DNA of 64,000 nucleotides, from assembly GCF_900230215.1 (NCBI RefSeq), contig NZ_LT907982.1, positions 3,827,568-3,891,567 of the forward strand. Reading direction: 5' to 3'. Below, piece after piece: positions 5,122-50,700 of this stretch. Under the pieces are notes generated by a model. It did not search any database, had not been told where the DNA came from, and saw only the letters and a program-made list of their open reading frames with translations. Both the position numbers and the translations under genes were made by a program. The stretch comes from Jatrophihabitans sp. GAS493 (GTDB taxonomy: Bacteria > Actinomycetota > Actinomycetes > Mycobacteriales > Jatrophihabitantaceae). Within the stretch, counting starts at the first letter, position 1, and each line of letters begins with the position of its first letter.

Positions 5122-5130
5122 CCACAAAAC

Positions 5131-7619: not shown

Positions 7620-7733
7620 GAAGAGCAGGCTAGAACAGATCGCAACTTACAGGGGAAAGTTATCCACAGGGTGGCGCCGGGTCGCCGCCGGGGCGTTGCG
7701 ACGCCGCCCCGCGGGGGTTTATAGGCTGACCCA

Positions 7734-9250: not shown

Positions 9251-9311
9251 CTTGGTGACCCTCGCTCCTGCCGGCTCCACGGGCCAGACCGCCAACACCA
9301 CGACCAATCCA

Positions 9312-27182: not shown

Positions 27183-28481
27183 CTAAGAAATAGGGGACTT
27201 CTCGTCCAGTCGCTCGAGGTGGCTGATGTCATTGACCAGGCGGACCGAGGCGTTTCCGTCGGCGAAGTAGTCGATGATCGAGATCGAGGCGGTATCGAGA
27301 TGAATTCGGAACAGCGTCTCGTGCGGTGCGCCGAGGGCGAGCCGTAGCAGCGTCTTGATCGGGGTGACGTGGGTAACCACGACAACCGTCTGCCCGGGGT
27401 AGGCGCTGATCAGCTCGTCACGGCCACGGCGTACCCGCTGCGCCACCTGCGCGAACGACTCACCGCCGGGGGCCGGTATCTCGCCGGTGCTCGAGAACTC
27501 GGCGAACTCGACCGGCCAGCGACTCGTCACCTCCGCCATGCTCAACCCCTCCCAGGCCCCGAAGTCGAGTTCGACCAAGGCGGGAACTGCGCGCACCGGC
27601 GCCTCGCCGGCGATCACCTGAGCCGTCTGCAGACAACGCGGCAGTGGCGAGGCGACCACCGCGGCGACGCCGGGTATCCGGCGCAGTCGCGCCCGTAGCG
27701 ACTCGGCCTGGGCCTCGCCGTCGGCCGAGAGCGGAAGATCATTGCGACCGGAGAAGAGCCGCTGCGGTGAGTGGGTCGTCGAGCCGTGGCGCACCAGGAT
27801 CAGGCGGGTGGGAACGCTGGAACTCGGTGTCCAACTCGGCGCGGGAGTTGTCGAAGGGGCCGGAGTGCTCGCCGCAGCCGGAGCGCTCGCCGCAGCCGGG
27901 GCGCTCACCACAGCCGGAGTGCTCGCCGCAGCCGGGGGGCTCACCACAGCCGGACCGTTAGCCGCGGCCGGATCGGTGGATCGACTGGCCGGCGGCCGGG
28001 GCGAAGCCTCCGAACCGCCCGATGCGCCCGATGCGCCCCCAGCGGCCACCCGTTTGACCTTCGGTTCGATGCCCGCGGCACGATCCATCGCCTCGTTGGC
28101 CAGCCGGTCGGCATACTTGTTCCGCTCCCGCGGGATCCACCGGTAATGGATCTCCTCGAACTGCAGGGCCAGCTCCAGAGCCTCGTCTCGCAACGCCCGC
28201 ATTCCTGCGTGTTTGGCCTGCCAGCTGCCCTTCATCTGCTCGACGACCAGTTTCGAGTCCATCTGGACCATGACTGAGGTAGCGCCGAGTTCGGCCGCGG
28301 CCCGCAGCCCGGCGATCAGCCCGCTGTACTCGGCCACGTTGTTCGTCTGGACGCCCAACGGTTCGTTGCGCTCGGCCAGGACCTCACCGCTGTCGGCGTC
28401 GAAGACAACGGCTCCATACGCGGCCGGACCCGGGTTACCTCGTGACCCGCCGTCGGCCTCGACGATGACGTGACGTCTCAC
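27183..28481 (-). CDS. Bifunctional RNase H / histidine-phosphatase (CobC-like acid phosphatase) protein (Rv2228c-like)
   Basis: N-terminal RNase H domain EADGGSRGNPGPAAYGAV, Pro/Ala linker, C-terminal phosphoglycerate-mutase-family RHG motif LILVRHGST. Confidence 0.85.
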   Translation of the reverse strand: MRRHVIVEADGGSRGNPGPAAYGAVVFDADSGEVLAERNEPLGVQTNNVAEYSGLIAGLRAAAELGATSVMVQMDSKLVVEQMKGSWQAKHAGMRALRDEALELALQFEEIHYRWIPRERNKYADRLANEAMDRAAGIEPKVKRVAAGGASGASGGSEASPRPPASRSTDPAAANGPAVVSPPAAASTPAVVSAPAAASAPAAASTPAPSTTPAPSWTPSSSVPTRLILVRHGSTTHSPQRLFSGRNDLPLSADGEAQAESLRARLRRIPGVAAVVASPLPRCLQTAQVIAGEAPVRAVPALVELDFGAWEGLSMAEVTSRWPVEFAEFSSTGEIPAPGGESFAQVAQRVRRGRDELISAYPGQTVVVVTHVTPIKTLLRLALGAPHETLFRIHLDTASISIIDYFADGNASVRLVNDISHLERLDEKSPIS

Positions 28482-31285: not shown

Positions 31286-32716
31286 ATGCTTTTCTGGCAT
31301 GTACCAGCCCCGAACGAAGCACTGCTCATCTCAGGCTCCAAGCGCGGTTCGGCGGAGTTGCAGTTCCGTATCGTCACCGGTCACGGCACGTTCGTCCCGC
31401 CGGTAATGCAGAAGGCGCGACTGCTGTCGCTGGCCCTGCGCGAGTCCCAGATCATCGAGGATTGCGTTACCCGCCAAGGGGTGCGCCTGACCATTCAGGC
31501 GGTGGCCGCATTCAAGGTCGGCGACGACCATCAGTCCATCGCCAACGCCGCCCGGCGATTCCTCACCGAGCAGGAGCGCCTGGAGGAACTGGTCGGACGG
31601 ATCTTCGCCGGGCACCTACGCTCCATCGTCGGCGCACTCACCGTGGAGGAGTTGATCCGGGAACGCGAGCGGGTGGCACAGGAGGTGAAAGACGGCAGCC
31701 ACAGCGAGATGGAGAAGCTGGGAATCGTGGTGGATGCCCTGCAGATTCAGGAGATCATCGACAAGAGCGGGTACATCACCAACCTGGCCGCACCTCACGT
31801 GGCGGCCGTCGCCAGCGCGGCCCGAATCGCGGCCGCCAAGTCCGATCAGGAGGCCTTCGAGCGAGAGCAGGAGGCGGGCGCACTGAAGGCACTCTACGAG
31901 CGCGACGCCTCGATCAAGATGGCCAGCTACGCCGCTGAGACCGAGAATGCCCGGGCCAAGGCGGCGCAGTCGGGCCCGCTGGCTCAGGCCCAGGCAACCC
32001 AGGAGGTGATCGAGCAGCAGACCGCGCTGGCACGACGCCAGGCCGAACTGGCCGCCCAGCAGCTTGAGGCTGACGTCCGGCGACCGGCCGACGCCGAGGC
32101 GTACAAGCAGCGCACGATGGCCGAGGCGCGGCGGGACCAGGCGAAGTTCGAGGCTGAGGCCGAGGCCTTCCACGCCACGACGCTGGCCGACGCCAACGCC
32201 CGCGCCGTCTCGGTCAAGGCACGGGCCGAAGCGGATGCCGATGCCTATCGCCGCACCGCCAAGGCCGACGCGAGCGCCGCGGCAATCTCGGTCGAGGCCC
32301 AGGCCGAGGCAAACGCCGAGGCGTACCGGACCACTGCGATCGCCGAGGCACGGGCCAAGGCGGTGCAACTCGAAGCCGACGCCGACGCCGAGGCCAACTC
32401 GGTACGGGCCGCGTCCTTGAGAGACGGCAATCAGCAACTAATTGCGGCCAATCATCTGATCGAAGTACTTCCGATGATGGTCGAGGCGGCCGCCAAGGGG
32501 CTGGCCGGGAGCAACCTCACAGTGCTCAACGGCGCGGAGGGACTGGGACAGATCGTCACCGGCTTGGTGGGTCAGGGCCTGGCCATCTTCGACACCCTCA
32601 AGAAGGCGACCGACCACGCCGAGACAGCCGTTCAACGCAGCGAGTCCGGTCCGGCGGTCACCGCCGGACCGGCCTCAATCGAGGCGGCCCCGACGCTGGC
32701 GGCGACTCGCAACTAG
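31286..32716 (+). CDS. Flotillin / SPFH (band 7) domain protein
   Basis: AAGGAG 9 nt upstream of ATG 31286; SPFH core then long Ala/Glu-rich flotillin-repeat coiled coil. Confidence 0.85.
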   Translation: MLFWHVPAPNEALLISGSKRGSAELQFRIVTGHGTFVPPVMQKARLLSLALRESQIIEDCVTRQGVRLTIQAVAAFKVGDDHQSIANAARRFLTEQERLEELVGRIFAGHLRSIVGALTVEELIRERERVAQEVKDGSHSEMEKLGIVVDALQIQEIIDKSGYITNLAAPHVAAVASAARIAAAKSDQEAFEREQEAGALKALYERDASIKMASYAAETENARAKAAQSGPLAQAQATQEVIEQQTALARRQAELAAQQLEADVRRPADAEAYKQRTMAEARRDQAKFEAEAEAFHATTLADANARAVSVKARAEADADAYRRTAKADASAAAISVEAQAEANAEAYRTTAIAEARAKAVQLEADADAEANSVRAASLRDGNQQLIAANHLIEVLPMMVEAAAKGLAGSNLTVLNGAEGLGQIVTGLVGQGLAIFDTLKKATDHAETAVQRSESGPAVTAGPASIEAAPTLAATRN

Positions 32717-35700
32717 CAGGCCCGCGCCCAGCACCAGCAGCAGCAGGGCAAGGCCCGTGCTCTGCCGGGCGGAGACACCGGTGGCGGCCAACGCCCCGGT
32801 GTTCTCCGTCTTGGCGCTCGGCCGAGCCTTGGGCGGCGTGATGGTCAGCGCCTCCACCGCGAAGTGGGTGGTCGGCGAGATAACGGTCAGCTTCACCGGC
32901 AGCGAGAAGACCGAACCGGCGCCGTTGGTGAAGACGACCCGATAGAGATACCCATTCTCGCCCTTGGTCGCGACGAAGGTCAGGAGCGCGTCCCCGGACG
33001 GGTCGGCGCCGCTGATCCAGGTCCGGCCGCCGTCCTTCGACTTCTGCCAGACGTAGGTCGGCCCGGGGAAGCCGCCGGCGGTGGCCCGGAAGGTGACCAC
33101 CTGTCCGGCCCGGACGCTCACCGCCTTGGGCTGAAGCAGGATCTTGGGAAGCGATGCATTGACCAGCAGGAACGACGACGAGCCGGTGGAGTCGACCGGA
33201 GGCGTGAGCACGCCGCCGCCGACCACCGGCGGAGTCGGCGCAACCAGCACGACCGGCGGTACGAGCGTCGCGATCACGTAGTAGCTGCCGGTGCTGAGGC
33301 CGGCGATGAACCCGCTCGCCACCGCGTTCCCGCTGGCGTCGGTGACCACGAGCAGTGTGATCGCGCCGCCCGGGAAGGTACCGCTGGGCGCGGTCGCGGG
33401 TGCGGTGAAGAGCACCTGCGCACCGGGTACCGGATTGCCGTACTGATCGAGCGCCGTCGCGGTGAGCGGCAGTCGGAACGGACGTCCCACGAGAGCGATC
33501 TGGAAGGTGCCCGTGGTGGCCACCACGGTGACCGCGGCGCCGGCCAGGTTGGTGAGGGCGAAGACGGCCGAAGAGACGGTCGGGGAGACCGCACCGGCGC
33601 CGGAGATGACACCGACGACGCTGTACGTGCCGGACTTGGTGCTGGCGGTCAGGATCGACGAGGTCGCCAGGCCGTCGAGGCCGGTCACCTCGGTCTCAAC
33701 CGCCGTCGCATTGCCGAAGGTGGCCGTGGGGACGGTGAGGCCACGTGGCCCCACCGGTGCGGTGAAGACGACCGTGACACCGGGCTCCGGGTTTCCGTAG
33801 CTGTCGGTGACCAGGGCGGTAATCGGTGCACCGAAGGCGGTTCCAACCAGCGTCGACTGCGGTGTGCCGGCTTGAGCGGTGATATGTGCCGGGGCACCGC
33901 CACCGAGTTCGTTGGGCAGTACCACTGGCACCCGGGCCGGGGTGAGACCACAGGCGACCCCGGGGGCCGATGCGACGTTCAACGCGGCCCGGCCGGTGCG
34001 GACGTTGACGCAGAAGAGGGCGTCGACGGCGGCGTTGTCGGCCGGGTTCAGAATCGGGCCGTAGCGGTTGGCCGAACTCGGTGCGATGGTGGCGATCGGC
34101 TGGAACGGGTCGGCCGTCGAACTCGCCGGGGCCAGTGCCACCACGTTCAACACGACCGGGGTGAACCAGTTGGTCGCATCGAAGGTGACGGCGGCCAGGT
34201 TGTCGCCGCCGGCGGCGACGAAGCGACCGTCGCAGCTGCACGGGTCGTAGATCACGAAGCGGCCACCGGTGTTGATCCGGTACGTCACTGGGCCGGTCGG
34301 GGCGGCGCTGAGCCGCAGCGTCAGCTGCGAACCGACCTGATCTCCGGCGGTGACCACAAGGGCCGGCGGCGAGACGATGAGACCGCTCTTGACGGTAAGC
34401 AGATTGACCACGACCCGCAGCGGGGTCTTGAGCGCCTTCGCGTACGCCTGGTACGCCGGATCGGTGCTGGTGACGGTGTGTGTGATGACATTCTTGCCAT
34501 TCGGGTCAAGCACCAGCGCCGGATTCGCTGTACCGCCAGTCGGCTGGGTTGGCGGGGGCGGGGCAAGCGTGGCGGCGACGGTGATCGTCACCGGCAGGAA
34601 CCAGTTCGTGGAGTCGAAGGTGATGCTCTGGGTGGCGGCGTCGAAGCGGGCGTCCGCGCTCGTCACGGTGAGCGTCGTCGGGTCGAAGCCGAGGGCGATG
34701 GTGACCGTCGTGCCGGCGGCCGGGGCGGCGGCCAGCACCACCGTGTAGCTACCGGTGATCCCCTGGGGCGGGGTACCGGCCAGCACGCTGACTCCGCCGT
34801 CGGGTTGGGTGATGATCACACCGGGCTGCGATGCGCCGAGCAGGTTCACGTACACGTTGCGGATCGACACATGGTTGTACCGATCGTCGCCGCTCTGGCT
34901 GCTGTGGCTGATCGTCTCGACGGTCGCGCCGGGCGCGGTGACCGCGCCGGTGATCGCTCGGACGAGCACCGTCTTGGGCCCGGTCTCGCCCGCGGCGAAG
35001 ACGAGAACCACGTTGTCCGACCACGTCAGGCCCCCGTCGATCGAGACCTGGGCGAACGGCGTGCCGGTTGCGAAGGCGGCCGAGATGTTCACGTACACGG
35101 TCGCCTTGGGCGGCGTGGCCAGGCGGACGGTGTAGCTGTCAGTCGCACCGTTCGTCGTTACCGCGGTCGAGCCGCCGGTCTCGGTGATGATGATGGACCC
35201 ACTCCCCTGGTCGATCACCGTCACCGGTACGACCGTCGGGGTGTTCGCCTCAGCCACGGTGCCGATCGTGATCTGACCGGTGGATCCGCCGGTCGCCAGG
35301 ACTCCGCTGATGATCGGGGTGAGCAGGCTCGACAGACCGGTGAGGAGGGTCGAGGCGGCAATGACGAACGGGCCACCGCCGGGCTGATGCAGGTTCTGGT
35401 AGCTGATGTTCAGTCCCTGCCCGAAGACACCGGTGGGCGTGGTGAGGATGTCGTGGGCGTCACCCACCGCCAGCACGTAGAGCTGGCTGGCTCCGGTCCC
35501 GCCGTCGACCGAGACCGGGGCGTCGATGTTGTACACCGGCACCGCGATCCGGACCGGCAGGGGCAGCAGGTTGGTGGCGAAGGTGTCCACCATCGGGCGC
35601 CCGGTGGTGGGATCGATGAGGGCGGAGGTGATGAAGGTGAAGAGGTCGTTGCCGGTGCCGGCCTCAAGCCTCAGTTCGGCCTTGTTCGAGTAGACCAGGA

Positions 35701-38700
35701 ACGTGTCGTTCCCGGCGCCGCCGTAGATGGTGGTCGGGAACCTGTTGCCGCGGCTCAGGAAACCGATGTTGGTCTGGGTGGTCGCGAACTGGTCCTCGGG
35801 GAGCACGTACGGCGCGACCCGCGGCAGGTAGTAAAGCTGTCCGACGTCGAAGGTGTCGTTACCGTCACCGCCGTTGATGGTGGTGATCGCGCTGTTGTCG
35901 TCCATGGCGAAGAAGTCGTCGCCGCCGAGGCCGTTGACGGTGAGCCGGCTGTTGATGTGCTCGTCGTAGTTGATCCGCTCCACGTCCTGACGCTTGCGCC
36001 CGAGCACGTCGGTGTAGGTGCCGTGCAGCAGCGCCACGAAGGCCGGCGACTGGGCCTGCGGCTGGTCGGGGATGAAGGAGGAGCCGCGCATCAGGAAGAC
36101 ATCAGGTCCGTCGGCCCCATTGACGGTGAGCGTGTTCCGACCACCCAGCGGCCCGGTGTTGAGAACGTCGATGCGGTAATCGTGGGTGGCCGCCGCGTCG
36201 CTGCCCCAGGTGTTGACGACGTAGGTGTTGTCACCCAGTTCACCGTTGAGCATCAGGCTGTCGCGGACTAGTTGGCCGCTGTACTGGTCGCCGGAGGTGT
36301 CGACGTGCTTGCCGGTCATCGTCTGCAGCCGGTCGACCTGGAAGAAGTCGTTGCCGTCGGGGCTCAACCCGCAGTTGGTGCTGACGTTCGTCGGCGGGCA
36401 GTTGCCGGTGTTCGGCGTTGCACCGTAGACGTTGGTCTGGCCGCCGAGCAGCGTCTGGTCGAAGTAGAAGTTGTCATCGCCGCGACCACCGAAGATGTTC
36501 GTCGGGTGACCCACCACGATGCCCCGGAAATGCATGGTCGATCCGACTGCGGGGCCGGTGACCGGCTCCAGGTACTCACCGTAGATCCAGACGGTCGCGG
36601 CGAAGATGAGGCTGCTGACCGCGGTCTCCACGTCGTTGCCGACCAGCAGCCGCACCTCACCGCTGGCCGCCGCGATCAGCCCCAGAGCCAGCACGACGCT
36701 GCCGTCCAGGGTGCTACCGCTGCCGAGCAGGGTCAGGTCGGCGTCGGTGCGGCCAGTGGCGAACGGCACCCGCAGCCGCACGTCGCCGTGCACCGACTGG
36801 GCGCGCAAGACATTCAGCGCGCCGTCGGTCTCGGTGAGGTAGATGCCACCACCGGGCAGTGCCACCGCCCCGATCACGTCGCCGCCGAATCCGTCGGCGT
36901 AGGCGTAGAGGCGACCGGTGGCCGAACTGCTGGAGTTGATCCGGACATCGCCGGAGGCATCGGAGGTGTAGGTGCCGATCGAGCCGCCGTGGGCGATCAG
37001 ATCGATACTGCGGGCCACGATGCTCGCCCCGGACGCGCTGTGGTTGTCCAGGATCGAGCCGGCGTCGGTGACCAGCGCGATGTCGGAGGTGAGCGAATCA
37101 GCCAGCGCCACATTCAGGTTGCCCTGGGTCTGCTCGATGAAGATGCCGGAGTTGGCCAGGGCCAGTAGCGCGCCGACGGCGGCGTTCGAGGAGTGGATCT
37201 CTAGGTAGTTGACCGTCGGGGTGACGAAGCCGATGCCACCGTGCAGGGCCAGCAGGGTGATGTTGTTGCCGGTCACCCGCGCCACGCCGTCGTCGGTCGC
37301 GGCGACGTCGAAGATCGAGGCCGGGTCGTCGGCGGCGATGAGTACGACGTCGTTGTTGGTCGAGGTGATGGTGCCGACCCGCAGGTCGCTCACCGTCTCG
37401 GTGTCGGTGATTCGCCCGTTGGTGAAGAGATCGATCTCGCCGACCTGGTCGCTCTGCGACAACTGCAGCGCCGGGTTACCCAACGCGAAGAGCGTGGCGT
37501 CGACGTTGGTGTGGGCCACGAACGTCACCTGGGTGCCGGTCGCGACGTGCCGGACGTTGATGTTGTTGCCGGCGCTGAGATCGGTGAAGTTGTAGGTGCT
37601 GTCGATCGGCGTCAGCACGTTGCCGAAGACCATCAGCACCGGGTCGTTGTCGACGAAGGGCTGATCCGGCCGGAAGAACACCCGGTAGAGACCGGTGCCG
37701 GGGAGGTTGGTGACCAGGTCCGGCGGGTTGTGCAGGTTGACCTGGATCGCCTCCGACGGCCATTGCGGCGCGTCGTTGCCCCACGCGCTGTCGTTCACGA
37801 CGATGTCGATGTTGCCGCCGGCGTGGATAGGTCCGAGGGTCGGCGCGAACGGCGTCTGGTTGGCCCGCAGGATCGAGGTGATGTCCAGGACGACGTTGCC
37901 CAGCGCCTCGGCGACCAGGGAGATGAAGCGGGTCGGGTCGACGTTGTCGACGATGTAGTCGCTCTGCACCAGCAGCACCGGAATCGGAATACGGATGCTG
38001 ATCCCGAAGAGGTTGAAGAGGATTCCGATCGATCCGGCCGGAGCCTCGAGCACCAGTGTGTTCGTCTCGATGAGCGGGCTGTCCGGTCCGGCGAAGATGT
38101 TTCCGCGCCCGTTGTTGACCACGGTGCTGCCGATCGGGTTGTAGATCAGCCCGTCGATGGTGACGTCGGAGTCGGCCACACTCCCGGCGAAGTTCTCGAT
38201 GTCGACCGCGGTGGGTGTGAAGATCGGCGGCCCGACGTGGAAGGTGAACGGGATCTGGTTGAGCTGGACGGTGACCGTCGCGCCCGGGTTGTTCAGGTTG
38301 ACGACATTGATGATGTGGGTGGTCAGCGCCCGGCTGGAGTAGTTGTAGATCTTGACGAAGTCGAAGGTGTTCTGCTGGACGAACTTCCCCTGGCTGCCGT
38401 CGATGAGGCTGGCCGGTGCGGTCGATCCGCCTTCGGTCTGGGAGACGCTGGCGTTGAAGAGCGCCGTCGCGCCGCCGTTGTTGACGATGTCCTGAACCTC
38501 GATGATGCGCCCGGACGGAATGGTGTCACCCAGGTCGTAACTGTTGCCGAGGTCGTCCTTCACCGTGATGCCGTAGAGCTTCACGATCTTGCCGCTCGAG
38601 TCGACGATCAGTTGCGGATCGGGTGTGTGCAGGTAGACGTCGGCGTTCCAGTGGATGGTGCGCTGGGCGTTGTTGTGGCTGCTGCCGTGGTTGCCGCCGC

Positions 38701-41700
38701 CGTCGAAGACGGCTCCGTCGTTGTCGTGATCGGTGTTCCAGTTGGTGACGTTCTGCACGACCTCGACGTCGAGGTGGCCGGTGCGGATGATCGCGGTGGC
38801 GTTGGCCGTGACGTCGGAGTCGCTGTTGTAGGTGATGTTCTCGGTGGTGTTGGTGTCACCGCCGAAGCAGCTGCAGTGGGCGTCGGTGTTGGCCGCGAAG
38901 CTGAGGTTGAGTGCGTTGGCCGCGATGCCCACCGTCTCATACCCGACGATCTTGGTGGCGCCGTCGATCTGCACCTGCTGGCCGGTGTTCGCGGTGATGG
39001 TGGCCTCGGCGTCGGACGCCGCGCCGAGGGCTGACGCGTGGGTGTGGCCGTTGTTGTGGGCGGTGATGCTGTCGGTCTGGGCGGTCAGTTGCACGTTGTC
39101 GGCGGTGAGGTGGGTGCCGGACTCGAGGTGGACGGTGGTGGTTCCGGTGACGTCCAGGTTGTTGGTTGCGTCGCCGTCGTCACCGGCGTGGGCGTCGACC
39201 CCGAGGCCACCCCCTTCGGCGCTGGTCGAGATGTTGCCGTTCACCGCGCTGTGGGCCTCGATATTGATGTTGTTGCCGGCGGTGATACTTCCGGCGATGT
39301 CGGTGAGGGTCGTGTAGTTGTCGGTCGACTTCGAGTAGGCGCTGACCCCGGCCCCGAGGCCGCCGCCGCTGGCGTTGGCCGACGAGATGGCCTGCACGAA
39401 GTTGAGCGGCGCGATCTTCACGCTGTCACCGGCGGTGAGGTTGGTGCCGGAGTCGAGCTTGACGGTGGTGTTCCCGGTGGCGGTCGCCTTGGCCTGCGCG
39501 CTGCCGACCGAGATGAGGCCGCCACCGCCGTTGGAGGAGTTCGCGCTGACGCCGGTCGAGGAGTTTGTGGTGATGGTGATGGAACCGACGGTGGTGAGCG
39601 AGGTGTTGGCGCCGACCTCGACGTTCACGTTCACCGTCTCGGTGGCGTTGGTGTTGGCGTGCGTGGAGTTGATGAAGCCACCCCCGCTGCCGGTCACCGT
39701 GGCGGTCGAGAGGACACCGCCACCGGCGGCCGGGCCGGTGATGCCGACCGGCGCCAGCTGCTGGGTGCCGCTGCTGGTCGCGGTCAGGTCGACGATGAGG
39801 TTCTGATCGCCGGTTCCGACGCCGATGGCGACCGGGGCGAGCTTGATGGTGCTGGCGCCGACTCGTCCGGTGCCGTCGAGGGTGAGCGGTGACCCATTCG
39901 GGGTCGAGGCCAGCTGGAAGGACGTGCCCGTGGCGTTGACCACGTAGTACCGGCCGCCGTCGGCCAGGCCGCCGATCGGCTGCTGACCCGGCGCGTAGAG
40001 ACCCTGCTTGATCGCCGCGCCGGCGGCCGACTTGTCCGGCGTCAGCGGCAGCGCCTGCTGCGGGATGGGGTTGTTGTCACCGTCCACGCAGGTTCCGGTC
40101 GCGTGGCAGAGGGAGTCGGCGAGCTGGATCTGGTTGGCGTTGATGTTGATGACGTAGTAGGTGACGCCGTTGGTCAGACCACCGATCGGCCCGGTACCAC
40201 CGTCGTAGACGACTGCGGTGCCGGTGGCCAGCCCGTGGTTGTGAATCAGGATGCGGTTGTCACTGTTGTTCTGCACCGGGTAGATCGGGTTGTTACTGCC
40301 ATCGACGTTGATGCTGACCAGCGCGCTGCTGAAGACGGCGATCGGGGTGGGCGCGGTGTAGGTCACCGGGGTTCCGTTGCCGAACGGGTTGGTGGCATTG
40401 ATCGTGTTTCCCGAGACATTCGCCCCGGTCAGGTTGATCACGGCGGTTGAGGAGTTGGGGTCGAAGAGCTGGATGTGCGAGTCGTCGACCACGTGCACCC
40501 GGTATAGCCCACCCGGGGTCAGGCCGGGGATCGCGCTGCCACCGGAGGGGACTTCGTAGATGACCAGGTCTCCCTCATGCAGGTTGTGGTTGAGGGGGAC
40601 GAAGGTCGGTCCGACCATGCGCCCGAAGGAGATCGTGCTGGTGGCCGGATCGATGTTCGCGCCCCCGAACGTGCTGCCCAGCCGCACGCTGTTGGCGTTG
40701 ACCACGAAGACGTTGTACTGCGCGTTGTTGGTGAGTCCGCCGACGTTCGGGTTCCCGGCGTTGGTGTAGGTGACGGTGTTGCCGGTGAGCAGGCCGTGCG
40801 GCGCGGTGAAGGTGATCGTGTTCGTGCCGGTGTTCACCCCGGTGCTGGCGTCGAAGAAGCCGGTGTTGCCGCTCGGCGGCGGGGCGGTGGTGTTCTGCTG
40901 GGCGGTGACGGTGATGCTGCCGCCAGAGTAGATCTGCGCGTTCGGTGCGATGTTGACGTTCACCGTCGGCGTGTTGTTGATCGTCGAGTTGTTCCCGACG
41001 ATGTTCAGCAGGATCCCGGCCGACGTGCTGCGCGAAGCCGACGTGGCCACCGGCGAGGAGGCCGCCCCAAGGCTGATGTCGCCGACGGTGGTGATCACCG
41101 AACCGCTGCTGGCCAGATCCGCCTCGACGGTGGTCGTGGTGGTTGCGGTGGCCCCGGCATTGCTGACCCCGACGCCGGCGACGCTGGTGTCGCTGATGAG
41201 GGCGGTGCTGGCGTCGCTGCCGGACGCCTGCACCGAGATGGAGCCGGCACCGGGGGCGGCGTTGGTCGCGCCGTGGGCACTGCCGAGCATCTTGGCCCGG
41301 GTGATGCCGAAGTCGTTGGCCGCCGGGTTGCTCACATCGACGGTGGCCAGGCCGCCGTTGACCGAACCGCCGGAGGCGGTGGCGCTGTTGGTGGCGTTGG
41401 CGATCACGGAGATCGCGGCGCTGGGCGCGTTCAGCAGGGCGCCGGCGCCGATGACGGCCGAGGTCACGCTGGCTGCGTCGACGGTCGCCGTCGGTGAGGA
41501 GTCGTGGGCGGAGATGAAGCCTCCGCCCTGCGCCCCCGAGGTGGCCGACGCGGTGCTGGCGCCGACGGCCTTCACGATCAGCCCGGTCGCCCCGCTCAGC
41601 CGTCCGTCGAACTCGGCCGTGAAGGCGCCGGCCGTGCGGCCGATCGGGATGCTCGCGCTGCCGGCGATGAAGCCGCCGTTCACCGAGTCGCTCAGGGCGG

Positions 41701-44700
41701 TGGCGGTGTTGGTGCCGTTGGCCAGCACGTTGACCAGGCCGCTGGAGGCCAGCGCGCCACCACCAGTGGTGGCCGAGACGTTGGCCCCGTTGAGCACTTC
41801 GGCGTCCACCGCCGAGCCGCTGATCGAGCCGAGGCCGATGCCGATCGAGAGTGTGGTCCCCTCCACGGTGTTGGCTCCGGCCGCCTTCACGGTGGCCTGG
41901 TGGGAGGCGAGCACCGCCCCGTTGAGCTGAGCCGCGACCGCAGCGCCGACCTGCGCCTTGGCGAAGAAGATGCCACCGGTGATCAGGCCACCGCTGGTGC
42001 TGGAGACCTTGGCCGCGGCGTAGTTCTGGTGGCCCGCGCCGTCCGGGGTGAGCGTGGCCGACACGAGGACCGTTCCGGTCGAGGTGAGCGCGGTGCTCGC
42101 GGCGACGGTGGCGCTCACCCCAGCTGAGGCCAGCACCTCCGCGTCCACCGAGACGCCGGTGATGCCGACGATGCCGAAGTTCTTCACGTCGACCGTGGCG
42201 ACGGCGGTGTTCTGCCCGCTGGCTGACACGGTGAAGTCACCCGAACTGGTCGTGCCGCCGGAGTAGGAGGCACTGGTCGGCGCGGCGACCTTGGCCGTCG
42301 GCAGCAGCGCGACCAGGTTGATCGCGCCGGCCGCCAGTTGGGACGGGGTGGCGGTGGCGTGATCGGTCGAGGTGGCGGTCACCGAGATGGCGCCGCTGAC
42401 GTGCACCGTGGTCGCGGTCGCGGTGACCGCAGCGGTGACCGAGGCCGAGGATAGGACCTCCGCGTCGGCACCGGCACCGCCGCCGGTGATGAGGCCGATG
42501 GCGACGATCGCCGAGGTGGCGGAGGCGCTGTTGTTCCCGCCGGCACTGACCGTGAAGGAGCCGGCGCTGCCGATCGGGGCGCCGCTGCTGGCCAGGGTGG
42601 CGGCGGCGACGGTTGCGGTCGGGATGCTGACGCTGCCGGAGATGAGGCCGATGTTCGCGGCGTCGGTACTGGCGTTGGCGGTGTTGCCGGAGTTCGCGAA
42701 GACGCCGATCGCCCCGCTGGAGCTGATGCTGCGGGAGCCGATCTGGGCGCTGACCGCCGCGTCCGCGGTGACGCTCGCCGCCACCCCGGCGACCGAGATG
42801 GTGAAGAGCCCGATACCGACCGACTTGGTGCTCGCCTCGGCGTCGTTGGCACCGGCCGCCTTGACGGTGATGCCGGTCGAGGCGGTCACGGCGCCGTTGA
42901 GCGTGGCGGTGACGGCGCCGGCGACGGTTGCCGTGCCGATGTAGACCCCGGCGTCGATGAGGCCGCCGCTGGCGCTCTCCGCGCTGGCCGAGGCGAAGTT
43001 CTGGTGGCCGCTGCCGTCGGCGGTCAGAACGGCCTGGACGGTGACTGCACCGGCGGCGGTGATGGTGGCACTACTCGCGACTGAGGCGGTCACATCCGCC
43101 CGGGCCAGGATCTCGGCGTCCACGATCACGCCGGAGCCACCGGCGAGGTGGAAGCTTGCCACCTTGGCGGTGGCGATGGCGACGTTCTGCCCGTTCGCCC
43201 CGACCAGGAAGGCGCCGGAGGTGGTGACGCCACCGTTGAAGGCGGCGTTGGTGTGCGCACCGACCTTGGCCGTCGGGGTCAGCGCCGAGAGGGTGTAGCC
43301 GCCCACCGCGACCTGCGACGGGGTGGCGGTGGCGCGGTTGGTGGAGGTCGCCGTGACGGAGACCGTGCCGGCACCGGCGTTCACCGTGGTGGAGCTGTCA
43401 TCGACGAGGGCGTCGACGGCGGCGGCACTGGTGATCTCGGCGTCGGATCCGGCGTAGCCGCCGACGATGAAGCCGACCTCGATGATCTCCGACGTGGCCG
43501 TCGCGTTGTTGGTGGCGGTGGCGGCGACGCTCAGACCCTGGCTCTTGAGCACATCACCGAACTCGGCGTGGGTGCGTCCGGCGATCGTGGCGATCGGGAT
43601 GGTGCCACCGGCGCTGATGATCCCGACGCCGGCGGTGTCGGTGTCGGCGGTGGCGGTGTTGTGCGAGGTGGCGGAGACGGCGACCGCGCCGGACGAGGTC
43701 ACCGTCCCGCCGAGGATGGTGGCATCGGTGACCGCGCTACCGGCGATGAGCGCCTGGATGCCGGAGACCGAGACCCCGAAGGCGCCGAGCGCGAAACTCT
43801 TGGTCTGGCCGTCGGCCCGGTTGCCGCCGCCGGCCGAGACCTTCACGCTGCCCGAGTTACTGACGTTGCCGTTCAGTTGCGCGGTGACGGCCGCCGCGAC
43901 GATGGCCTGGGCGATGAAGACACCGATCGAGATGCCGCCGCCGGCGCCGGAGAAGATGCGAGTGCGGGCGTAGTCGGCGTTGCCGGCGGCGTCCGGCGTG
44001 GAGGCGGCGTTGACGCTGACCAGACCGGTCGAGGCGATGGTGCTGGACTTGTTCACGGTGGCCCGGATCGCGGCCTGTGAGGTCACCTCGGCGTCGGCGT
44101 CGACGCCGCTGAGGCCGCCGACGGAGATGCTGATGATGGTTGCCTCGGCGTCGGCCTGGTTCTGCCCGGCGGCGCTGACGGTGATCGAACCGGACGCGGT
44201 GATCTGCCCGTCGACGGTCGCGGTCGTCGAACCGTTGACAGTGGCGGTCGGCAGTAGCGCGCCGATCGTGATGCCGCCGGCCGTCCCACCCGGGGTGGTC
44301 GCGGTGGCGTGGTTCTGCGAGGTGGCCCCGACGGTGACCGCGCCGCCGGCGGCGATGTTCGCGAAGGTGGTGAAGCTGGCGGCGGTGGTGCGGTTCTCGG
44401 TCGCGGTTGCGATGGTGAGCCCGGCGGCAAACCCACCGGCCTTCACGTTCAGGACGAACGCGCTGACGGTATTCGTCCCACCCGCGGTAACCGAGACGCT
44501 GCCGGCGACCGGGCCGTGGCCGCCGAAGGAGGCGGCCGTGGTTCCCTCGATGGTGGTTATCGCCACGCCGGCCCCGACCCCCACCGCACCGACGCCGATC
44601 GAGTAGGCGATGGCCGGGGCGCTGATCGTCGAGTTGGCCGAGACATTCACCGCGCCGACCGGCGAGGCCGAGCCGATCGAGACGTTGCCGATGGTGGCGG

Positions 44701-47700
44701 TGGTATTGCCATCGATGCTGGCCACGGCGACGGCCGCCCCGACGGCGATCGCTCCGATCTGGCCACCGATCGCGCTCGGGGTGACGCTCCGGTTGCCGAT
44801 CGCGGCGACGGTGACGCTTCCGCCAGCCTGCGGGATCGTCGCGTTGTCGTCGATGTGGGCGTTCTGATCGCTGTGGTCGTTGATCACCGCGATCTGGCCG
44901 CCGACCGCCACCGCACCGGCCTGGCCGCCGAAGGCGAGTCCGGAGGAGGTCTCGTTGGTCGAGGCGATGACGGCGACGTCACCGCCGGCCGAGATGCTCG
45001 CGTTCGAGCCGATCGAGGCGTCGGCGTGACTGTCGACGTTGGCGATCACCAGCGAGAGGCCGATGCCGACGAAGCCGCCCGCGGCGCTGCCGGCTAGGCC
45101 GGCGAAGCCGAAGTTCTCCAATGCGGCGACGGCGACGCTGCCGCCGGCGACGATCGTCACGCCTTGGCTGATGGCCGCCACTGTGCCTTCGGGGAGGCCG
45201 GGATTGGTGACGCCGCCGCTGATCTGGCCGGCGGTGGGCGCGTTGCTCTGGATTGAACTGGTGGCGTCAGCGGTGTGGTTCTTGATCAGCGTGTTGCTGC
45301 GACTGGTCGAGCTGCCCGAGGTCCCGCTGAGGATGCCCTGGAATCCGCCCGAGCCGGTGGCCTGGGTGTCGGCCTCGCCCTGCGGATCGCCATTGGAGGA
45401 GAGCCCGTTGGTCGATGGCCCGGGGCCGTTGCTGTAGTTCGGGTTGGGCTGGGTGCCGATCGTCCAGACCGAGACCGAACCCGCCGCCCCGACGAACCCG
45501 CCGCCGACACTCACCGCGTAGCTGGCGATGTCCTTGGCCGCGAGGGCGTACACGCCGACGTTGTTCCTGGCGTGGACGGTGGCGTAGAGGCCGAGGTAGG
45601 CCTTGGTGGTGGTGTCGACGACGCCCACGTCGACGCCGCCGGCGATGCCGACCGCTCCCCCGGCCAGCGCTCCGGCGATGGTCAGCGTCTTGGTGAAGTC
45701 GGCGGCGGAGACGTTGACCGACTGGGCCGCCCCGGCCCCGGCCTTGGTGTTGACCAGCGTCGGTGCCTGCGCGTTGCTGTCGATGAACGCGATCGTGGTG
45801 GCGTGCAGCAGCGTGATCCCGATGCCGCCGGCGACGCCGACGAAGCCACCGGCCAGGCCGAGGGTGAGACCGAAGATGTCCTCGCTGGAGCCGGCCTGGA
45901 CGGCGAGGCCGTTGAACGGCGCCGTGACGAAGTTGTTTCCGTTGAGCTGGCCGGCGTAGATCGCAGCCAGGGTGACACCGGGCTGGGTGGCCAGCGCGTC
46001 GACGGTACTGCCCGCGCTGATGAAGGCCTGAGTGTCCTTCGTCGCCAGGGTGACTCCTACCCCGGCGCCGATGCCGACGATGCCACCGGCGACCCCACCG
46101 GCCACCATGATCACCTTGGTGTCGTCGCGGGCGGCGACGAGCAGGTTGTTGCCGGCGGTGATCGTGTCGCCGAAGCCGGTGTCGGCGTAGGTGTGCGTGT
46201 TCAGCGAGATCACCGAGACGGCGCCGGCGATACCGGCGATACCGCCGCCGCCGGCCAGGGCCACTGAGACGATGCTGTCCTTGGCGCTGGCGTTGACGAC
46301 GATGTCCTGCGCCGCGTTGACGGTGCTCTGCGCTCCGATGTAGGCGTTGGTGTTGAGGTGGATGAGCCCGACCGAGGCGCTCGGCGCGACCCCGGCGTAC
46401 AGGCCGACGGCCAGCACTCCGGAGACCATCAGCTGGTGGTAGTCGTTGCCCGCCGCAACCAGCACCGACTGGCTGGTGCTCGCGCCACTGTTGGCTGCGT
46501 TGATGGTCGCGAACTTACCGATAAACGCGTCGGTGTTGCTGGTGACGACATTGACGCTGCCGCCGACGCTCACGCTGGCCCCGGCCGAGATCGCTCCGCT
46601 GATCCCGACCCCGGAGATGTCGTCGCTGTTGCTGGCGGTGACTGCGATGCCGCGGAATCCACTTCGGCTTCCGTTGAGGACTGTGTGGATTCCGGTGACC
46701 TGCGCGGCGTTGCCCGAGGGAGTGCTCCCCGAGGGGACGATGCTGTGCGAGCGCCCAGCCCCGGCGGCCGCGGCGTTGAGTGTGATCGCCTGCTGGGCGA
46801 TGCCCGAGCAGGTGCCGGTGGCCTGGCACTTCGTGGCGGCGAGCTGGATGGTGTGGGCGCCGGTGACGATCGCGTAGTACGTGTGACCGTCGACCAGCCC
46901 GCCGATCGGAGCCTCGCTCCCCGAGCCGTAGACGACCGCGTCGCCGGTGTTCAGCGTCATGTCGTAGGGCAGGTTGATCGAGTTGCCGACCACGTCCAGC
47001 GACGGGGTGAAGTAGGGCGAGCTGTTCTGCGGGGTCACCGCCGAGTTGGTGGCGACCAGTCGCTGCGACTCGCCGCCTCGGGCCGGCGCAGTGAGGGTGA
47101 TGGCCGGGCCGCCGGAGGTTGCCGACAGCTGCACCTCGGTCGGGGAGATGACGTGCACGTAGTAGGGGGTGCCGCCGGTGAGACCGATGATGTTCTGGCC
47201 GCCGCCGTTGTCGTAGATGACCTGCTGCCCCTCGGTGAAGCCATGCAGGTAGCCCAGGTTCAGGGTGCGGTGATCACTCTCGACGGCGGTCGTCGGGGCA
47301 AAGCGGATGTCGGTGTACTGCTCGTCGTGGGTGCCGGTGGCGACGGTGAGGCTGGCGTCGTTGGTGGCCAGTGCGTTGACCGTGGAGTCATCGCCGATGA
47401 AGGCGGTCGTGGTCTTGTTGACGATCGGCACCGCGCCGGCCGCACCGACCGCGGCCGAGCCCGACACCGAGAGGTTGCCGGCAACGACGGCCAGCGTGAG
47501 CTGCTCATTGGCCGAGACGCGCGCGCTGCCGTGCGTATTGATCGTCGAGCGGAAGCCGGCACAGGCCGCCGGTGTCCCGGCCTCGCAGAGGCCGCCGATG
47601 AAGGCCTTCGTCACGATGGTGAAGACGGAGACGGCGGCGTTCACGCTCACCGCGACTGAACCGCCGAGGCTGACGCTGGCCGAGACCGAGGTGACCTTCT

Positions 47701-50700
47701 CGCTCGAGGTCGAGTCGACGGTGACGTTGCCGTTGGCGTTGGCAACGACGCCCGTCGCGATCCAGGCCTGGGTGTCCTTGCTCAGCGTCTCGACGTCGAC
47801 GCCGGCTCCGATGCCGGCCGACCCACCCGCGGCCAGCGCACCGGCGATGCCGAGGATCGTCGTGGTGTCCGTGGCGGCCAGCGCGATGCCGTTGGTCGAG
47901 GAGGCGCCGCTGTTGTTGCCGTTGACGGTTACGCCGCTGTCCACGTGGGCGTGGGTCGAGTCGTCCAGGACGTCCACGGTGGCCGACCCGGCGACTCCCG
48001 CGTCACCACCCGCCGAGCCGCCGATGGCGAAGATCTTGATGCCCTCGTTCTGGCTGGCCCGGACCGACAGGCCGCTGTTGCCCTTGGCCTCGATGTCGCT
48101 GCCGGCGCCGACGTAGGCGTCGACGTAGCCGCTGCGGATGAGGATGGAGGAGGAGATCCCGACTCCGGCGCTGCCGCCGATGGTGACGTTGCCGGCGTAG
48201 AGGCCGAGGTCGGAGGCGTCGTCGGAGGCGGCCAAGGCCACGTTGCCACCGGCATGCACGATCGTCGACTGGCTACCGTTGCCCTCGATGTAGGCCCGCG
48301 TGCCTGGTGGCACATCCCCTTCACCGCTGCCCTGGTTCATCACCAGCACGATGAAGGAACCGGCCACCGCGGCTTCGGTGGAGGCGGCGGCGTCGACCGA
48401 GATCTCGGTGACCTTCTCCCCGGCCGTCGCACCGATGGCGATGTCGCCCCCAACCGTGACGTGCGCCCCCTGGCCGATGAAGGAGCGGACGTCCTTGTTG
48501 ATCACGTCGACGACCAGGCCGAGCCCGACCCCGACGTCACCGCCGGAGAGGGCGACCGCACCGGCGAGGTTCACCAGGGAGGTCTGGTCGCTGGAGGTGA
48601 TGGAGAGCGACTGCCCGGGCGTGGCCGGGCCGGCCTGGTTCACCAGCGCGGCGGCGGCGATGTAGGCCTGGGTCGCCAGGTTGATGACGTCCACGATCAC
48701 CGAGCCGCCGATGGCGACCCCACTGGTGCCGGCCGCGCCCGCGATGGCTACCGAGCTCACCGCCGGCGGGGTGATCTTCGGGATGTCGGGCACCAGCGGG
48801 CTGATCGACTGGGCCGCGTTGAGGCTCATCGCGCCACCGGCATCGATCCGGGTGACCGCCGTCGTCGAGGAGTCGATGTAGGTGCGGGTGCTGATGTCGA
48901 TGATGTTCACCGCGACCGCCGCGCCGACCCCGGCGTCGCCGCCGAGGGAGAGCGCCCCCGACGCGGCAATGTTCTGCAGGCCGAGCGGGGCGGTGGAGTT
49001 CATCGTCAGCGCGCCGGTGAGGGTGACGTGCGAGCCGCTGCCGATCGAGGCGGTGCTGTGGAAGGTGATCACCTGAACGCCGACGGAACCAGCGACGCTG
49101 GCGTCCCCGTCGCCTCCAGCCGCGGCGATCCCCCACACCACGAAGTCGTTCTCGGCCCGGTCGGGTGTCACCGCGCTGACGACCAGGCTGGAGCCGGTGA
49201 TGGTGGCGCCGGTGCCGATCGAACCGCTGTTGGTGACGCTGGCGACGTTGAGCCCGACTGCGGCGCCGATGTTCGTGCTGCCGAGCTTCAGCGCGATCCC
49301 CATCGCCTTGCCGGTCGCGTCGGTCTCGTTGGTGGCGGCGACGATGACCGCCCCGGTGCTGAGGATGGAGAGGCCGGGAGCGACCGAGGCCGTGTTGGAG
49401 TCGGTGACCCAGTTGACGCTCACCGCCGCGCCGACACCGACCCCGGAGCCGCTGTTGCCCGACTGCGAACTGGCCTGGCTGTTACCGGAGGCCACGTTGT
49501 CGCTGGCGGACGGGAGCGTCCCGGTCTGCCCGCTGGTGCTCGGGGTGTTGTTGACCTGGCTGCTGGCCTGCTGGTCGGAGTTGCTGCCACTGCCCTTCTG
49601 CGAACCCTGGGCGCTGGCTGTCACGTTGGCCGCGCCCGAGTCCTGCGTCGTCGCGGTGATCGCGACCGATGCGCCGCTGAGGTTGCGGGCGGTCGCAGCC
49701 AGGGTGGTGTCGGTGACGACGTTCACCGCGATGATCGCGCCGACGGCGACGCTGTCGCTGGCCGCCTTCGCGTCGCCGGTGATCGTGCTGGAGCCGGTGT
49801 GCGTGGCCCGGATCTGGATGTCGCCGGTCGCGGCGAGCAATCCGGTGCCGGGGGCGCCGAGCCGGGCCGTGGTGACGTTGGTGGTGATGTTGATACCGAC
49901 GGCCGGGCTGACCGCCACCGAGCTCCCGGCGGAGCCGGCGGTGACCTGGTTGACGACCGGCTCGGCGGAGGTCGCGAGCAGGGTGACGTTGCGGCCGCCG
50001 GTGAGGCTGGCGTTGTCCTCCACCTCGGCCCGGGTGATGTTTGTGGTGAGGACGTTGATGGCTACCGAGGCTCCGACGCCGACCTTCCCGCCGCCGCCGA
50101 TGCTGGCGTCGGCCTTGGCCTTGGCGCTGTCGGAGCGAAGGTTCTGCGCGACCAGCGAGATGTCGCCGGTGCCGGCGCCAACCGTGGCCGTCGTGGTGAC
50201 GAAGGCTTCGGTGCGGTCGGTGACCAGGTTCAGTGAGACGGCGCCGGCGACCCCGACGTCCTTCGATCCGGCGCCCGCGTCGGCCTCGACATCGAAGGTG
50301 TGCACCGTGTCGCCGTTGAGGTTGGTCATCGTCGACTCGGCGTCGAAGCCGTTGCTGGTGACCTTGCTGAGGCGTCCGATCGAGGCCTGGTTGGTGATGG
50401 TGACCAGGTTGATCGAGACGGCCGCACCGACACCGACGTCCTCGGCCTTCACCGCGGTGCCGTCGGACTTGACCGTCCCGTCGACGTTCTCCGACGTGCG
50501 CAGGCTGACCACGCCACCGGCGATGAGCGTGAGCGACGCGGGCAGGGTCGCGGTGGCGCTGACGTCGGCGATGTTGAGGGCGACCGCCGCGGCGACCGCG
50601 ATCTTGCCGTCGGAGGTGGAGGCCGATGGGGACGCGCTGGTGCCGGTGCCGCCGCCGCCGTTGGCCGTGTCGGTGTCGGTGGCGTTGCTCCGCTCGGTCG

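Follow-up and report, generated by a model that had tools for sequence, protein, structure and literature searches.

Class E sortases of Actinobacteria recognize LAXTG motifs and anchor the proteins that carry them to the cell wall (PMC5148588, PMC8225981, PMC13251363). In S. coelicolor, the chaplins ChpA-C, which SrtE1/SrtE2 (class E) anchor, end in an LAXTG motif, a hydrophobic segment and a basic tail (PMC5148588), the same arrangement that is described here for a protein of Jatrophihabitans sp. GAS493. Actinoplanes missouriensis, another high-GC Gram-positive organism, has the class E enzyme SrtE and its substrates SspA, CwpA and CwpB, which carry C-terminal sorting signals (PMC13251363); likewise, Actinomyces oris SrtA and Corynebacterium SrtF / Cg-SrtE are examples of a single housekeeping class E enzyme that serves diverse surface proteins (PMC8225981). 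The substrates known from Actinoplanes, Actinomyces and Corynebacterium are of ordinary size, have been studied genetically and are unrelated in sequence to the Jatrophihabitans protein. Class F sortases are also present in actinomycetes (PMC13251363): A. missouriensis has one enzyme of class E and four of class F, and S. coelicolor has two and five, respectively (PMC13251363, PMC5148588).

In this study, we analysed 64,000 nucleotides (here called the window) of the genome of GAS493 (GenBank LT907982), which has been proposed to be a polysaccharide-degrading soil bacterium (PMC7498423). The last 38 codons of the largest gene of the region very probably specify an LAXTG-type, sortase-dependent cell wall sorting signal that would act through the mechanism proposed below. 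The signal is ordinary and its mechanism a textbook one; the sole notable feature is the unusually large cargo, a >1-MDa fibre of LktA-like, all-beta repeats. Chaplins are small, hydrophobic, amyloid-forming proteins of about 200 to 250 residues, whereas the repeat fibre of GAS493 exceeds 10,441 residues. The predicted outcome is the same for both, namely, covalent attachment to peptidoglycan.

Anatomy and placement of the C-terminal signal

The giant open reading frame ends in ...ENTGA-LAATG-VSARQSTG-LALLLLVLGAGLLVA-S-RRQRRGRLD-stop (window positions 32678-32791, minus strand; Table 1), and the tail as translated from positions 32675-33400 of the same strand reads ...KTENTGALAATGVSARQSTGLALLLLVLGAGLLVASRRQRRGRLD*. 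The sorting signal therefore spans 38 codons (114 nt), with LAATG starting 38 residues ahead of the stop codon and a predicted scissile bond between Thr and Gly. The preliminary description had given the tail as LAATG, 8 residues, a 15-residue hydrophobic helix and RRQRRGRLD before the stop codon; the translation reproduces this exactly and at identical coordinates, and differs solely in the single Ser before RRQRRGRLD, which had been omitted. The peptide ENTGALAATGVSAR is a candidate sortase substrate for this signal.

Table 1. Features of the giant gene and its convergent neighbour, in window coordinates
Feature	Position	Strand	Basis or detail
SPFH/flotillin gene, convergent	31286..32716	+	Band_7, E=1.6e-21
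Stop codon of the giant gene	32675..32677	-	Translation
Positively charged tail RRQRRGRLD, predicted to be cytoplasmic and to act as retention signal	32678..32704	-	5 Arg in 9 residues
Hydrophobic membrane-spanning segment (predicted) LALLLLVLGAGLLVA plus one Ser	32705..32752	-	LALLLLVLGAGLLVA, 32708-32752; Ser, 32705-32707
Spacer VSARQSTG, 8 residues, from motif to hydrophobic segment	32753..32776	-	Translation
LAATG, predicted sortase recognition motif	32777..32791	-	Reverse complement TTG GCC GCC ACC GGT = L-A-A-T-G
End of last folded domain, then short Pro/Lys-containing linker (…TITPPKARPSAKTENTGA) ahead of the motif	32792..32908	-	
Ig-like domain (Pfam Ig_3 / I-set, both below cut-off)	32909..33148	-	Ig_3, E=3.5e-5, 24.6 bits (cut-off, 30)
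Two bacterial Ig-like group 1 (Big_1) domains	33251..33883	-	E=1.6e-7, two stretches, 31.8 bits (cut-off, 34.9)
Distal region (residues about 8300-10039), not repetitive, containing GGxGxD-like motifs	33884..39100	-	No internal repeats
Beta-strand repeats of divergent sequence, rich in Ala/Gly/Thr/Ser/Val (residues about 4464-8300)	39101..50611	-	
Tandem 383-residue repeat unit, at least 12.6 copies	50612..64000	-	Unit HMM scores, 540-655 bits

The hydrophobic run LALLLLVLGAGLLVA comprises 15 to 17 residues, and its best 14-residue Kyte-Doolittle window scores 2.97. The last 212 residues were modelled with AF2 from the single sequence; in this model, which was poor overall (pLDDT 41), local residues 183-211 form a helix, and the block means of pLDDT are 63, 88 and 80 over residues 181-210 and 50 for the final two residues. 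The interval that precedes the motif (32792..32908) matched no domain model and had a pLDDT below 50. When the spacer was measured by a uniform rule, under which the hydrophobic run may begin at Thr/Gly, it came to 6 residues in the giant protein and 1 to 7 residues in the homologues described below.

LAxTG occurs at chance frequency in this Ala/Gly/Thr-rich protein (about 2.2 occurrences expected from composition in 10,442 positions, 2 observed); therefore, the pentapeptide alone carries no meaning. The second LAATG, at residue 4722, is not followed by a hydrophobic segment. The placement of the terminal motif is a different matter: when the local sequence was shuffled 200,000 times, L[AP]xTG fell within the 20 residues ahead of the hydrophobic segment in 0.46% of cases, and its position just before the C-terminal hydrophobic segment is unlikely to be due to chance. 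Furthermore, when all six frames of the whole window were examined, such a tail was found on one open reading frame only, the giant one.

In profile searches with the isolated 60-residue tail, the top-ranked NCBIfam models were sortase signal models, three of them of the LAXTG type: LAXTG_small_WW (NF058583), strep_LAETG (NF041528) and Microco_LAVTG (NF058582), which ranked 1, 3 and 5 with 24.3, 15 and 15 bits, below curated cut-offs of 65, 30 and 27 that are tuned to specific protein families. The LPXTG_anchor model TIGR01167 scored 16.2 bits on the isolated tail, against a cut-off of 15.9, and fell to 11.3 bits when 300 residues were searched. The models of further C-terminal sorting systems (PEP-CTERM, MYXO-CTERM, JDVT-CTERM and similar) were also considered and rejected; all ranked below the sortase signal models, with PEP-CTERM at E=0.77 (10.7 bits; cut-off, 16) and MYXO-CTERM at E=4.4.

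The giant gene and its convergent neighbour

The giant open reading frame (32675..64000, minus strand) comprises at least 10,441 codons. It is still open where the window ends and runs for 31.3 kb, as far as base 64000, uninterrupted by an in-frame stop. Its GC3 is 0.86 over 10,442 codons and 0.83 over the last 40, and it is a real coding sequence. The edge of the window truncates the first repeat unit; therefore, the N-terminus lies outside the window and the gene extends past base 64000.

Most of the visible protein consists of repeats. The 383-residue tandem units are 69 to 95% identical to one another, and the gene contains an exact internal repeat of 1,217 nt; the units have been duplicated recently, and the length of the fibre may vary. 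The NCBIfam model NF012206 (LktA_tand_53) matched the tandem block with 60.2 bits in 7 stretches and residues 4400-5600 with 115.5 bits in 9 stretches (cut-off, 50), and by these repeated matches the protein is a member of the LktA-like tandem repeat group. No Pfam model matched residues 1-1200 or 4400-5600 at E values up to 1, or residues 5242-9241 at E values up to 0.01. In an AF2 model, one 383-residue unit was all-beta (pLDDT 73.8, pTM 0.78); a Foldseek search of this model against the PDB gave no significant match, and the proteins that it listed, none of them significant, were beta-solenoid proteins only, such as HxuA, EtpA and HMW1, which suggests a beta-helix fold for the modelled unit.

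The only Pfam match to the distal region was a weak one to RTX (residues 8300-9600, E=0.11), and this region (about residues 8300-10039) is common to other giant actinobacterial proteins. The sole relatives found for the Big_1 stretch were Big_1 repeat proteins of at most 47% identity, and a PDB sequence search with the Ig-like region returned weak matches only, to Ig domains of LAR, DSCAM and titin.

NF012206 is named after the leukotoxin LktA of Fusobacterium necrophorum. The LktA_tand_53 group resembles FHA-like two-partner-secretion exoproteins, and proteins of the LktA type are Gram-negative exoproteins that are released, or displayed via an outer-membrane partner. The GAS493 protein has the same kind of repeat body but ends in a Gram-positive sortase signal, and its 383-residue higher-order unit is specific to it in comparison with the LktA_tand_53 proteins.

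The convergent SPFH gene overlaps the end of the giant gene: its final 14 codons lie on the same DNA as the giant gene's stop codon and the 13 sense codons before it, the charged tail included. It stands outside the sorting signal proper, yet it occupies the same DNA. No terminator was found between the two genes, which overlap. The C-terminus of the SPFH protein is the same in the 100% identical entry P0019 (Jatrophihabitans sp. GAS493) and is not conserved in homologues; the gene for the nearest homologue, P0020 (78%), lies in an unrelated context, adjoining secE-nusG-rplK.

Conservation of the signal in distant homologues

Searches of 5.8 billion proteins, genome contigs and metagenome contigs with the last 212 to 400 residues returned no true orthologue. 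Conservation was therefore judged on more distant homologues, which were collected through residues 8501-9700 and 8501-9960; a representative library contained 1015 homologues of the distal region, the best of them 48 to 56% identical. Among homologues that share residues 8501-9700 and have an intact hydrophobic and basic C-terminus, there were 13 unique tails, and 11 of these carried L[AP]x[T/A]G 1 to 7 residues before the hydrophobic segment. The position of the motif relative to this segment is thus conserved, whereas the tails have little sequence in common beyond the pentapeptide and a generic hydrophobic and Arg-rich pattern (3 to 8 Arg residues in the tail). The preliminary description had looked to orthologues for conservation of the motif; although true orthologues are absent, conservation of the signal was borne out in these homologues, which include Microbacterium, Aeromicrobium and Microbacteriaceae proteins with the same three-part signal.

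Ala occupies P3 in 8 of the 11 unique signal tails, including one LAAAG variant, and Pro in the other 3. The eight Ala tails are LAATG (P0297), LAPTG (P0311 at locus L082, the closest relative at 56% identity, after frame correction), LADTG (P0153), LATTG (P0289 and P0143), LAYTG (P0141), LARTG twice (P0306, from Microbacterium sp., and P0307) and LAAAG (P0147, from Aeromicrobium). Pro is found in LPPTG (P0142) and LPATG (P0176 and P0149); the last of these, from Microbacterium rhizomatis, bears the NCBI name 'LPXTG cell wall anchor domain-containing protein'.

The giant homologues P0306 (6483 aa), P0307 (6660 aa) and P0289 (5133 aa), together with split genes at loci L080 and L082, follow the same plan as the GAS493 protein: a beta-strand repeat body, the distal region (38 to 56% identical to residues 8501-9960) and an LAxTG/LPxTG signal. 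Unlike the GAS493 protein, they are without the module of two Big_1 domains and an Ig-like domain, their signal follows a Pro-rich linker directly behind the distal region, and they are roughly half its size.

The sortase partner and the proposed route to the wall

The host belongs to the Actinomycetes (Actinomycetota), a group with described class E sortases and LAXTG substrates, and the genes that flank the giant gene show typical actinobacterial core synteny. The P3 residue of the GAS493 motif is Ala, not Pro, as in class E substrates. From taxonomy and motif together, the partner is most probably a housekeeping class E sortase. No sortase domain was found in 20 neighbouring open reading frames selected by GC3 (window positions 1-32716) or elsewhere in the 64-kb window, no PF04203 gene was found in the neighbourhoods of the homologues at loci L080, L081 and L082, and a TLxTC sortase motif pattern gave nothing real over the loci examined. 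A literature search returned no papers on Jatrophihabitans together with sortase.

The preliminary description had read LAXTG as implying a specific class E partner. Recognition of LAXTG by class E enzymes stands, on the published systems (PMC5148588, PMC8225981, PMC13251363) and in an actinomycete host; the specificity, however, is softer than that reading supposed. In vitro, SrtE1 favours LAETG over LPETG only about 2-fold and cleaves both (PMC5148588), so the motif alone does not identify the enzyme class. Homologues swap LAxTG and LPxTG, and the predominance of Ala at P3, which is a majority and not invariant, fits this roughly 2-fold preference.

The same exchange of motifs, together with cleavage of both by SrtE1, lends some weight to the alternative that the signal is real but is processed by an enzyme outside class E, for example one of class F; Ala at P3 would then be no marker of the partner. 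Several class F enzymes often occur beside one class E enzyme in actinomycetes, as the sets of A. missouriensis and S. coelicolor illustrate. In the actinomycetes that have been studied, however, anchoring of LAXTG proteins and the associated phenotypes depend on class E; the Actinoplanes class F deletions tested gave no phenotype (PMC13251363), the characterised P. acnes class F enzyme uses LPXTG (PMC8225981) and the class A enzyme SrtA does not cleave LAETG at all (PMC5148588). We regard processing outside class E as improbable. It is more improbable still that the tail only anchors the protein in the membrane, uncleaved, and that the pentapeptide LAATG arose by chance in a protein rich in Ala, Thr and Gly. 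The chance rate of LAxTG, the second LAATG at residue 4722 and the marginal scores of the curated HMMs would fit such a reading; its difficulty lies in the placement probability of about 0.5%, and in the recurrence of the motif, with its distance kept, in 11 of the 13 unique tails of homologues, which have little other sequence in common; chance gives no explanation for this.

We give similarly little credence to the view that expression of the gene does not yield a single protein, whether as a pseudogene, through misassembly of its repeats or for want of a functional start, which would leave the signal without function. The frame runs uninterrupted for 31.3 kb with a GC3 of 0.86, PacBio sequencing at 156x coverage gave the source genome as a single scaffold (PMC7498423), and an intact, conserved C-terminal signal speaks for selection. 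These points stand against the position of the N-terminus beyond the window, the difficulty of assembling a 1,217-nt exact repeat and near-identical 383-residue units, and the frequent frameshifts that break homologues in metagenome assemblies.

Under our preferred reading, that of a class E sorting signal, the gene would be expressed and an N-terminal signal beyond the window would direct export of its product, presumably by the Sec pathway, while the hydrophobic segment, together with the Arg-rich tail, would keep the C-terminus in the membrane. A cysteine transpeptidase bound to the membrane, most probably the class E enzyme that serves as housekeeping sortase, would then cut LAATG between Thr and Gly, and the cleaved protein, ending in ...GALAAT, would be transferred to lipid II. 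The result would be a fibre of all-beta repeats, larger than 1 MDa, attached covalently to the peptidoglycan, with the Big_1 and Ig-like domains nearest the wall. That an LktA-type polypeptide of more than 10,441 residues (>1 MDa) is fixed covalently to actinomycete peptidoglycan by a class E sortase is a realistic possibility, which we put forward tentatively.

In conclusion, the tail adds one further protein, from a soil genus that has been little studied, to the predicted LAXTG substrates. It has no bearing on any long-standing open question and its importance is modest; however, the largest gene of the region gains a predicted location and orientation, wall-anchored with the C-terminus inward and the repeat fibre outward, and the giant protein becomes a candidate adhesin or surface fibre. 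As a set, the giant actinobacterial proteins share one plan of repeat body, distal region and LAxTG/LPxTG anchor. If anchoring by class E is true, the GAS493 protein would rank with the largest known sortase substrates, and it would define a family of wall-anchored actinobacterial mega-fibres that is also found in Microbacterium and other actinomycetes.

The C-terminal end of the giant protein

The frame of the giant ORF has no stop up to base 64000, and an HMM of the internal repeat showed that the first repeat copy is clipped by the window edge; therefore, the protein exceeds 10,441 residues in length, with an N terminus beyond the window. GC3 is 0.86 across the whole ORF and 0.83 in the final 40 codons, values that mark the frame as genuine coding sequence. 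Translation of the 3' end gave ...TITPPKARPSAKTENTGA-LAATG-VSARQSTG-LALLLLVLGAGLLVA-S-RRQRRGRLD-stop, with a linker of 18 residues joining an Ig-like domain to the signal. The preliminary description had read this end as a tripartite class E sortase signal (LAATG, 8 residues, a 15-residue hydrophobic helix, and RRQRRGRLD); its parts and coordinates match the translation exactly, the sole slip being that it passes over one Ser, which separates the hydrophobic run from the Arg tail. The giant gene and the convergent SPFH/flotillin gene share 42 nt, and no terminator-like structure was found between them. The DNA of the Arg-rich tail also encodes, on the opposite strand, the nonconserved C-terminal tail of the flotillin.

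Features of the giant gene and its neighbours (window coordinates in nucleotides; residues of the giant protein counted from base 64000)
Feature	Position	Strand	Remarks
L,D-transpeptidase (YkuD + Big_10)	19838-21169	-	11.5 kb from giant-gene end
Histone-H1-like gene (Pfam HC2)	24945-25490	-	Lys/Ala-rich
RNase H/histidine-phosphatase fusion	27183-28481	-	
SPFH/flotillin gene	31286..32716	+	
Overlap of SPFH/flotillin and giant genes	32675-32716		
Giant ORF, as called	32675..63985	-	
Sorting signal, LAATG to RRQRRGRLD	32678-32791	-	38 codons
GGxGxD/GGxGNDxF motifs	35500-36500 (residues ~9180-9500)	-	
Second LAATG	49835-49849 (residue 4722)	-	Inside repeat body, no hydrophobic segment after it
Exact DNA repeat, 1,217 nt	61311-62527 and 57864-59080	-	Spacing 3,447 nt, three 383-residue units
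Tandem 383-residue units	residues 1-4463	-	At least 12.6 copies, 69-95% identity between copies
Divergent Ala/Gly/Thr/Ser/Val-rich repeats	residues 4464 to ~8300	-	Of like kind to 383-residue units, but more divergent
Nonrepetitive region	residues ~8300-10039	-	
Two Big_1 domains and one Ig-like domain	after residue ~10039	-	All slightly below Pfam cutoffs

When the isolated 60-residue tail was scanned against NCBIfam, the top matches were sortase-signal models: LAXTG_small_WW (24.3 bits), TIGR01167 LPXTG_anchor (16.2 bits; cutoff, 15.9), strep_LAETG (15 bits), and Microco_LAVTG (15 bits); PEP-CTERM and MYXO-CTERM gave E values of 0.77 and 4.4. The TIGR01167 score fell to 11.3 bits with 300 residues of context, and the three LAXTG-type models scored under their cutoffs, which were themselves set for particular protein families; by HMM score, therefore, membership is borderline. 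By anatomy and conservation, it is clear that the tail belongs among the sortase signals.

The protein is rich in Ala (17.5%), Gly (13.6%), and Thr (13.1%), and its two LAxTG pentapeptides compare with approximately 2.2 expected from composition over 10,442 positions, so the pentapeptide by itself is uninformative. The placement of LAATG ahead of the hydrophobic segment, unlike the pentapeptide alone, is informative: when the local sequence was shuffled 200,000 times, L[AP]xTG fell no more than 20 residues before such a segment in 0.46% of cases. No comparable sorting-type tail was found in the other ORFs of the window, scanned in all frames.

Sorting signals in homologous giant proteins

Since the last 212 to 500 residues have no true orthologue in a 5.8-billion-protein database, species-representative genomes, or JGI metagenomes, homologues were sought with the nonrepetitive region. 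Residues 8501-9700 gave 1015 matches among 1.84 billion representatives, and a second search took residues 8501-9960 to the named database; many of the matches are fragments or are broken by frameshifts in long-read assemblies. Among the 13 unique homologue tails that end in a hydrophobic segment and then an Arg cluster, 11 carry L[AP]x[T/A]G 1 to 7 residues upstream of that segment, the exceptions being P0222 and P0258. The preliminary description had made its reading depend on conservation of the motif, and in these distal-region homologues, which are not true orthologues, the motif is kept; thus, the sorting signal is conserved across a group of giant actinobacterial proteins. Ala predominates at the second position of the pentapeptide (P3) without being invariant.

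Pentapeptides in the tails of homologous proteins
Motif	Homologue
LAATG	P0297, 2228 aa, the 3' part of a giant gene that is split (locus L080)
LAPTG	P0311, locus L082, closest relative (56% identity); seen only in corrected frame
LADTG	P0153, Microbacteriaceae, assigned via neighbouring gene
LATTG	P0289 (5133 aa), P0143
LAYTG	P0141
LARTG	P0306 (Microbacterium sp., 6483 aa), P0307 (6660 aa)
LAAAG	P0147 (Aeromicrobium sp.)
LPPTG	P0142
LPATG	P0149 (Microbacterium rhizomatis; NCBI name "LPXTG cell wall anchor domain-containing protein"), P0176

Giant genes in long-read metagenome assemblies (L080 1768-16687, L081, and L082) are split by frameshifts into several called genes, and at L082 14400-15000 the true C terminus with LAPTG lies in a frame other than that of the called gene; as a result, too few of these signals appear in protein databases. 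The best-scoring match of the residue 8501-9700 search, P0139 (7024 aa), has a LEPR-XLL-like N-terminal motif (…EALEPRVLLSASPA…) and no sortase signal. Giant proteins with a different kind of targeting, whose hosts are probably non-actinobacterial, therefore have the distal module as well.

The probable partner sortase and alternative readings

In the established sortase pathway, the exported protein would be held in the membrane by the hydrophobic segment and the Arg tail; a cysteine transpeptidase would then cut the Thr/Gly bond of LAATG and pass the protein to lipid II. We infer export, cleavage, the identity of the enzyme, and expression as a single polypeptide. LAXTG recognition in Actinobacteria is ascribed to class E sortases, examples being S. 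coelicolor SrtE1/E2 with the chaplins and SrtE of Corynebacterium, Actinomyces, and Actinoplanes (PMC5148588; PMC8225981; PMC13251363), and a class E enzyme is for that reason the most likely partner. The preliminary description had gone further, taking LAXTG to imply a specific class E partner; that specificity is softer than implied, because SrtE1 favours LAETG over LPETG just approximately 2-fold (PMC5148588), the homologues alternate between Ala and Pro at P3, and actinomycetes usually have class F sortases too (PMC13251363). Handling by a sortase of another class is unlikely.

It is more improbable still that the C terminus stays uncleaved as an anchor in the membrane and that its motif arose by chance, since the motif recurs in homologue tails that are otherwise dissimilar. 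The 1,217-nt exact repeat indicates that a block was duplicated very recently, and it may be a hotspot for changes in length or for misassembly; however, the frame, open over 31 kb, and the deep coverage of the PacBio assembly make it very unlikely that the giant gene is misassembled or unexpressed. GAS493 (Actinomycetota, Actinomycetes, Jatrophihabitantales), which has a protein 100% identical to the SPFH/flotillin product, was isolated from forest soil, and its PacBio sequence forms a single scaffold at 156x coverage (GenBank LT907982; PMC7498423). The reading of the tail as a sortase signal is supported.

Downstream of the giant-gene 3' end, window positions 1 to ~32,700 form a typical actinobacterial core region (pepA, lpdA, lipA, glnA, glnE, a second glnA, nadE, panB, the RNase H/phosphatase fusion, a CT398-like zinc-ribbon protein, NIF3, and SPFH/flotillin), in which 20 GC3-selected ORFs were scanned and no sortase domain was found. 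The L,D-transpeptidase is a cell-wall enzyme but not a sortase and shows no sign of a tie to the giant gene. The HC2 and RNase H/histidine-phosphatase genes look like ordinary actinobacterial core genes, unrelated to the sorting signal.

Architecture of the giant protein

Sampled stretches of the repeats had no Pfam match; NCBIfam NF012206 (LktA_tand_53, tandem repeat-containing filamentous protein) scored 60.2 and 115.5 bits against a cutoff of 50. AlphaFold2, run on an alignment of twelve units, predicted an all-beta unit with long strands (pLDDT, 73.8; pTM, 0.78). Foldseek against the PDB listed only beta-solenoid proteins (SufB/D, HxuA, EtpA and HMW1 secretion domains, ice-binding proteins, and curli), none significant, so the model suggests an all-beta fibre but does not demonstrate a beta-helix. 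The GGxGxD/GGxGNDxF motifs resemble RTX calcium-binding repeats; the stretch gave one weak Pfam HemolysinCabind match (E = 0.11), and the motifs are kept in homologues, e.g., P0290 and P0163.

The LAATG signal is of the same kind as the LAXTG signals found on chaplins and on other substrates of class E sortases, and its mechanism is ordinary, not new. Giants of 5,000 to 7,000 residues from Microbacterium and other actinomycetes form a loosely related set that has the anchor in common with the giant protein. Elsewhere, repeats of the LktA type are known in filamentous proteins secreted by Gram-negative bacteria. What is unusual here is the cargo, a fibre of repeats that is predicted to be all-beta and exceeds 1 MDa.
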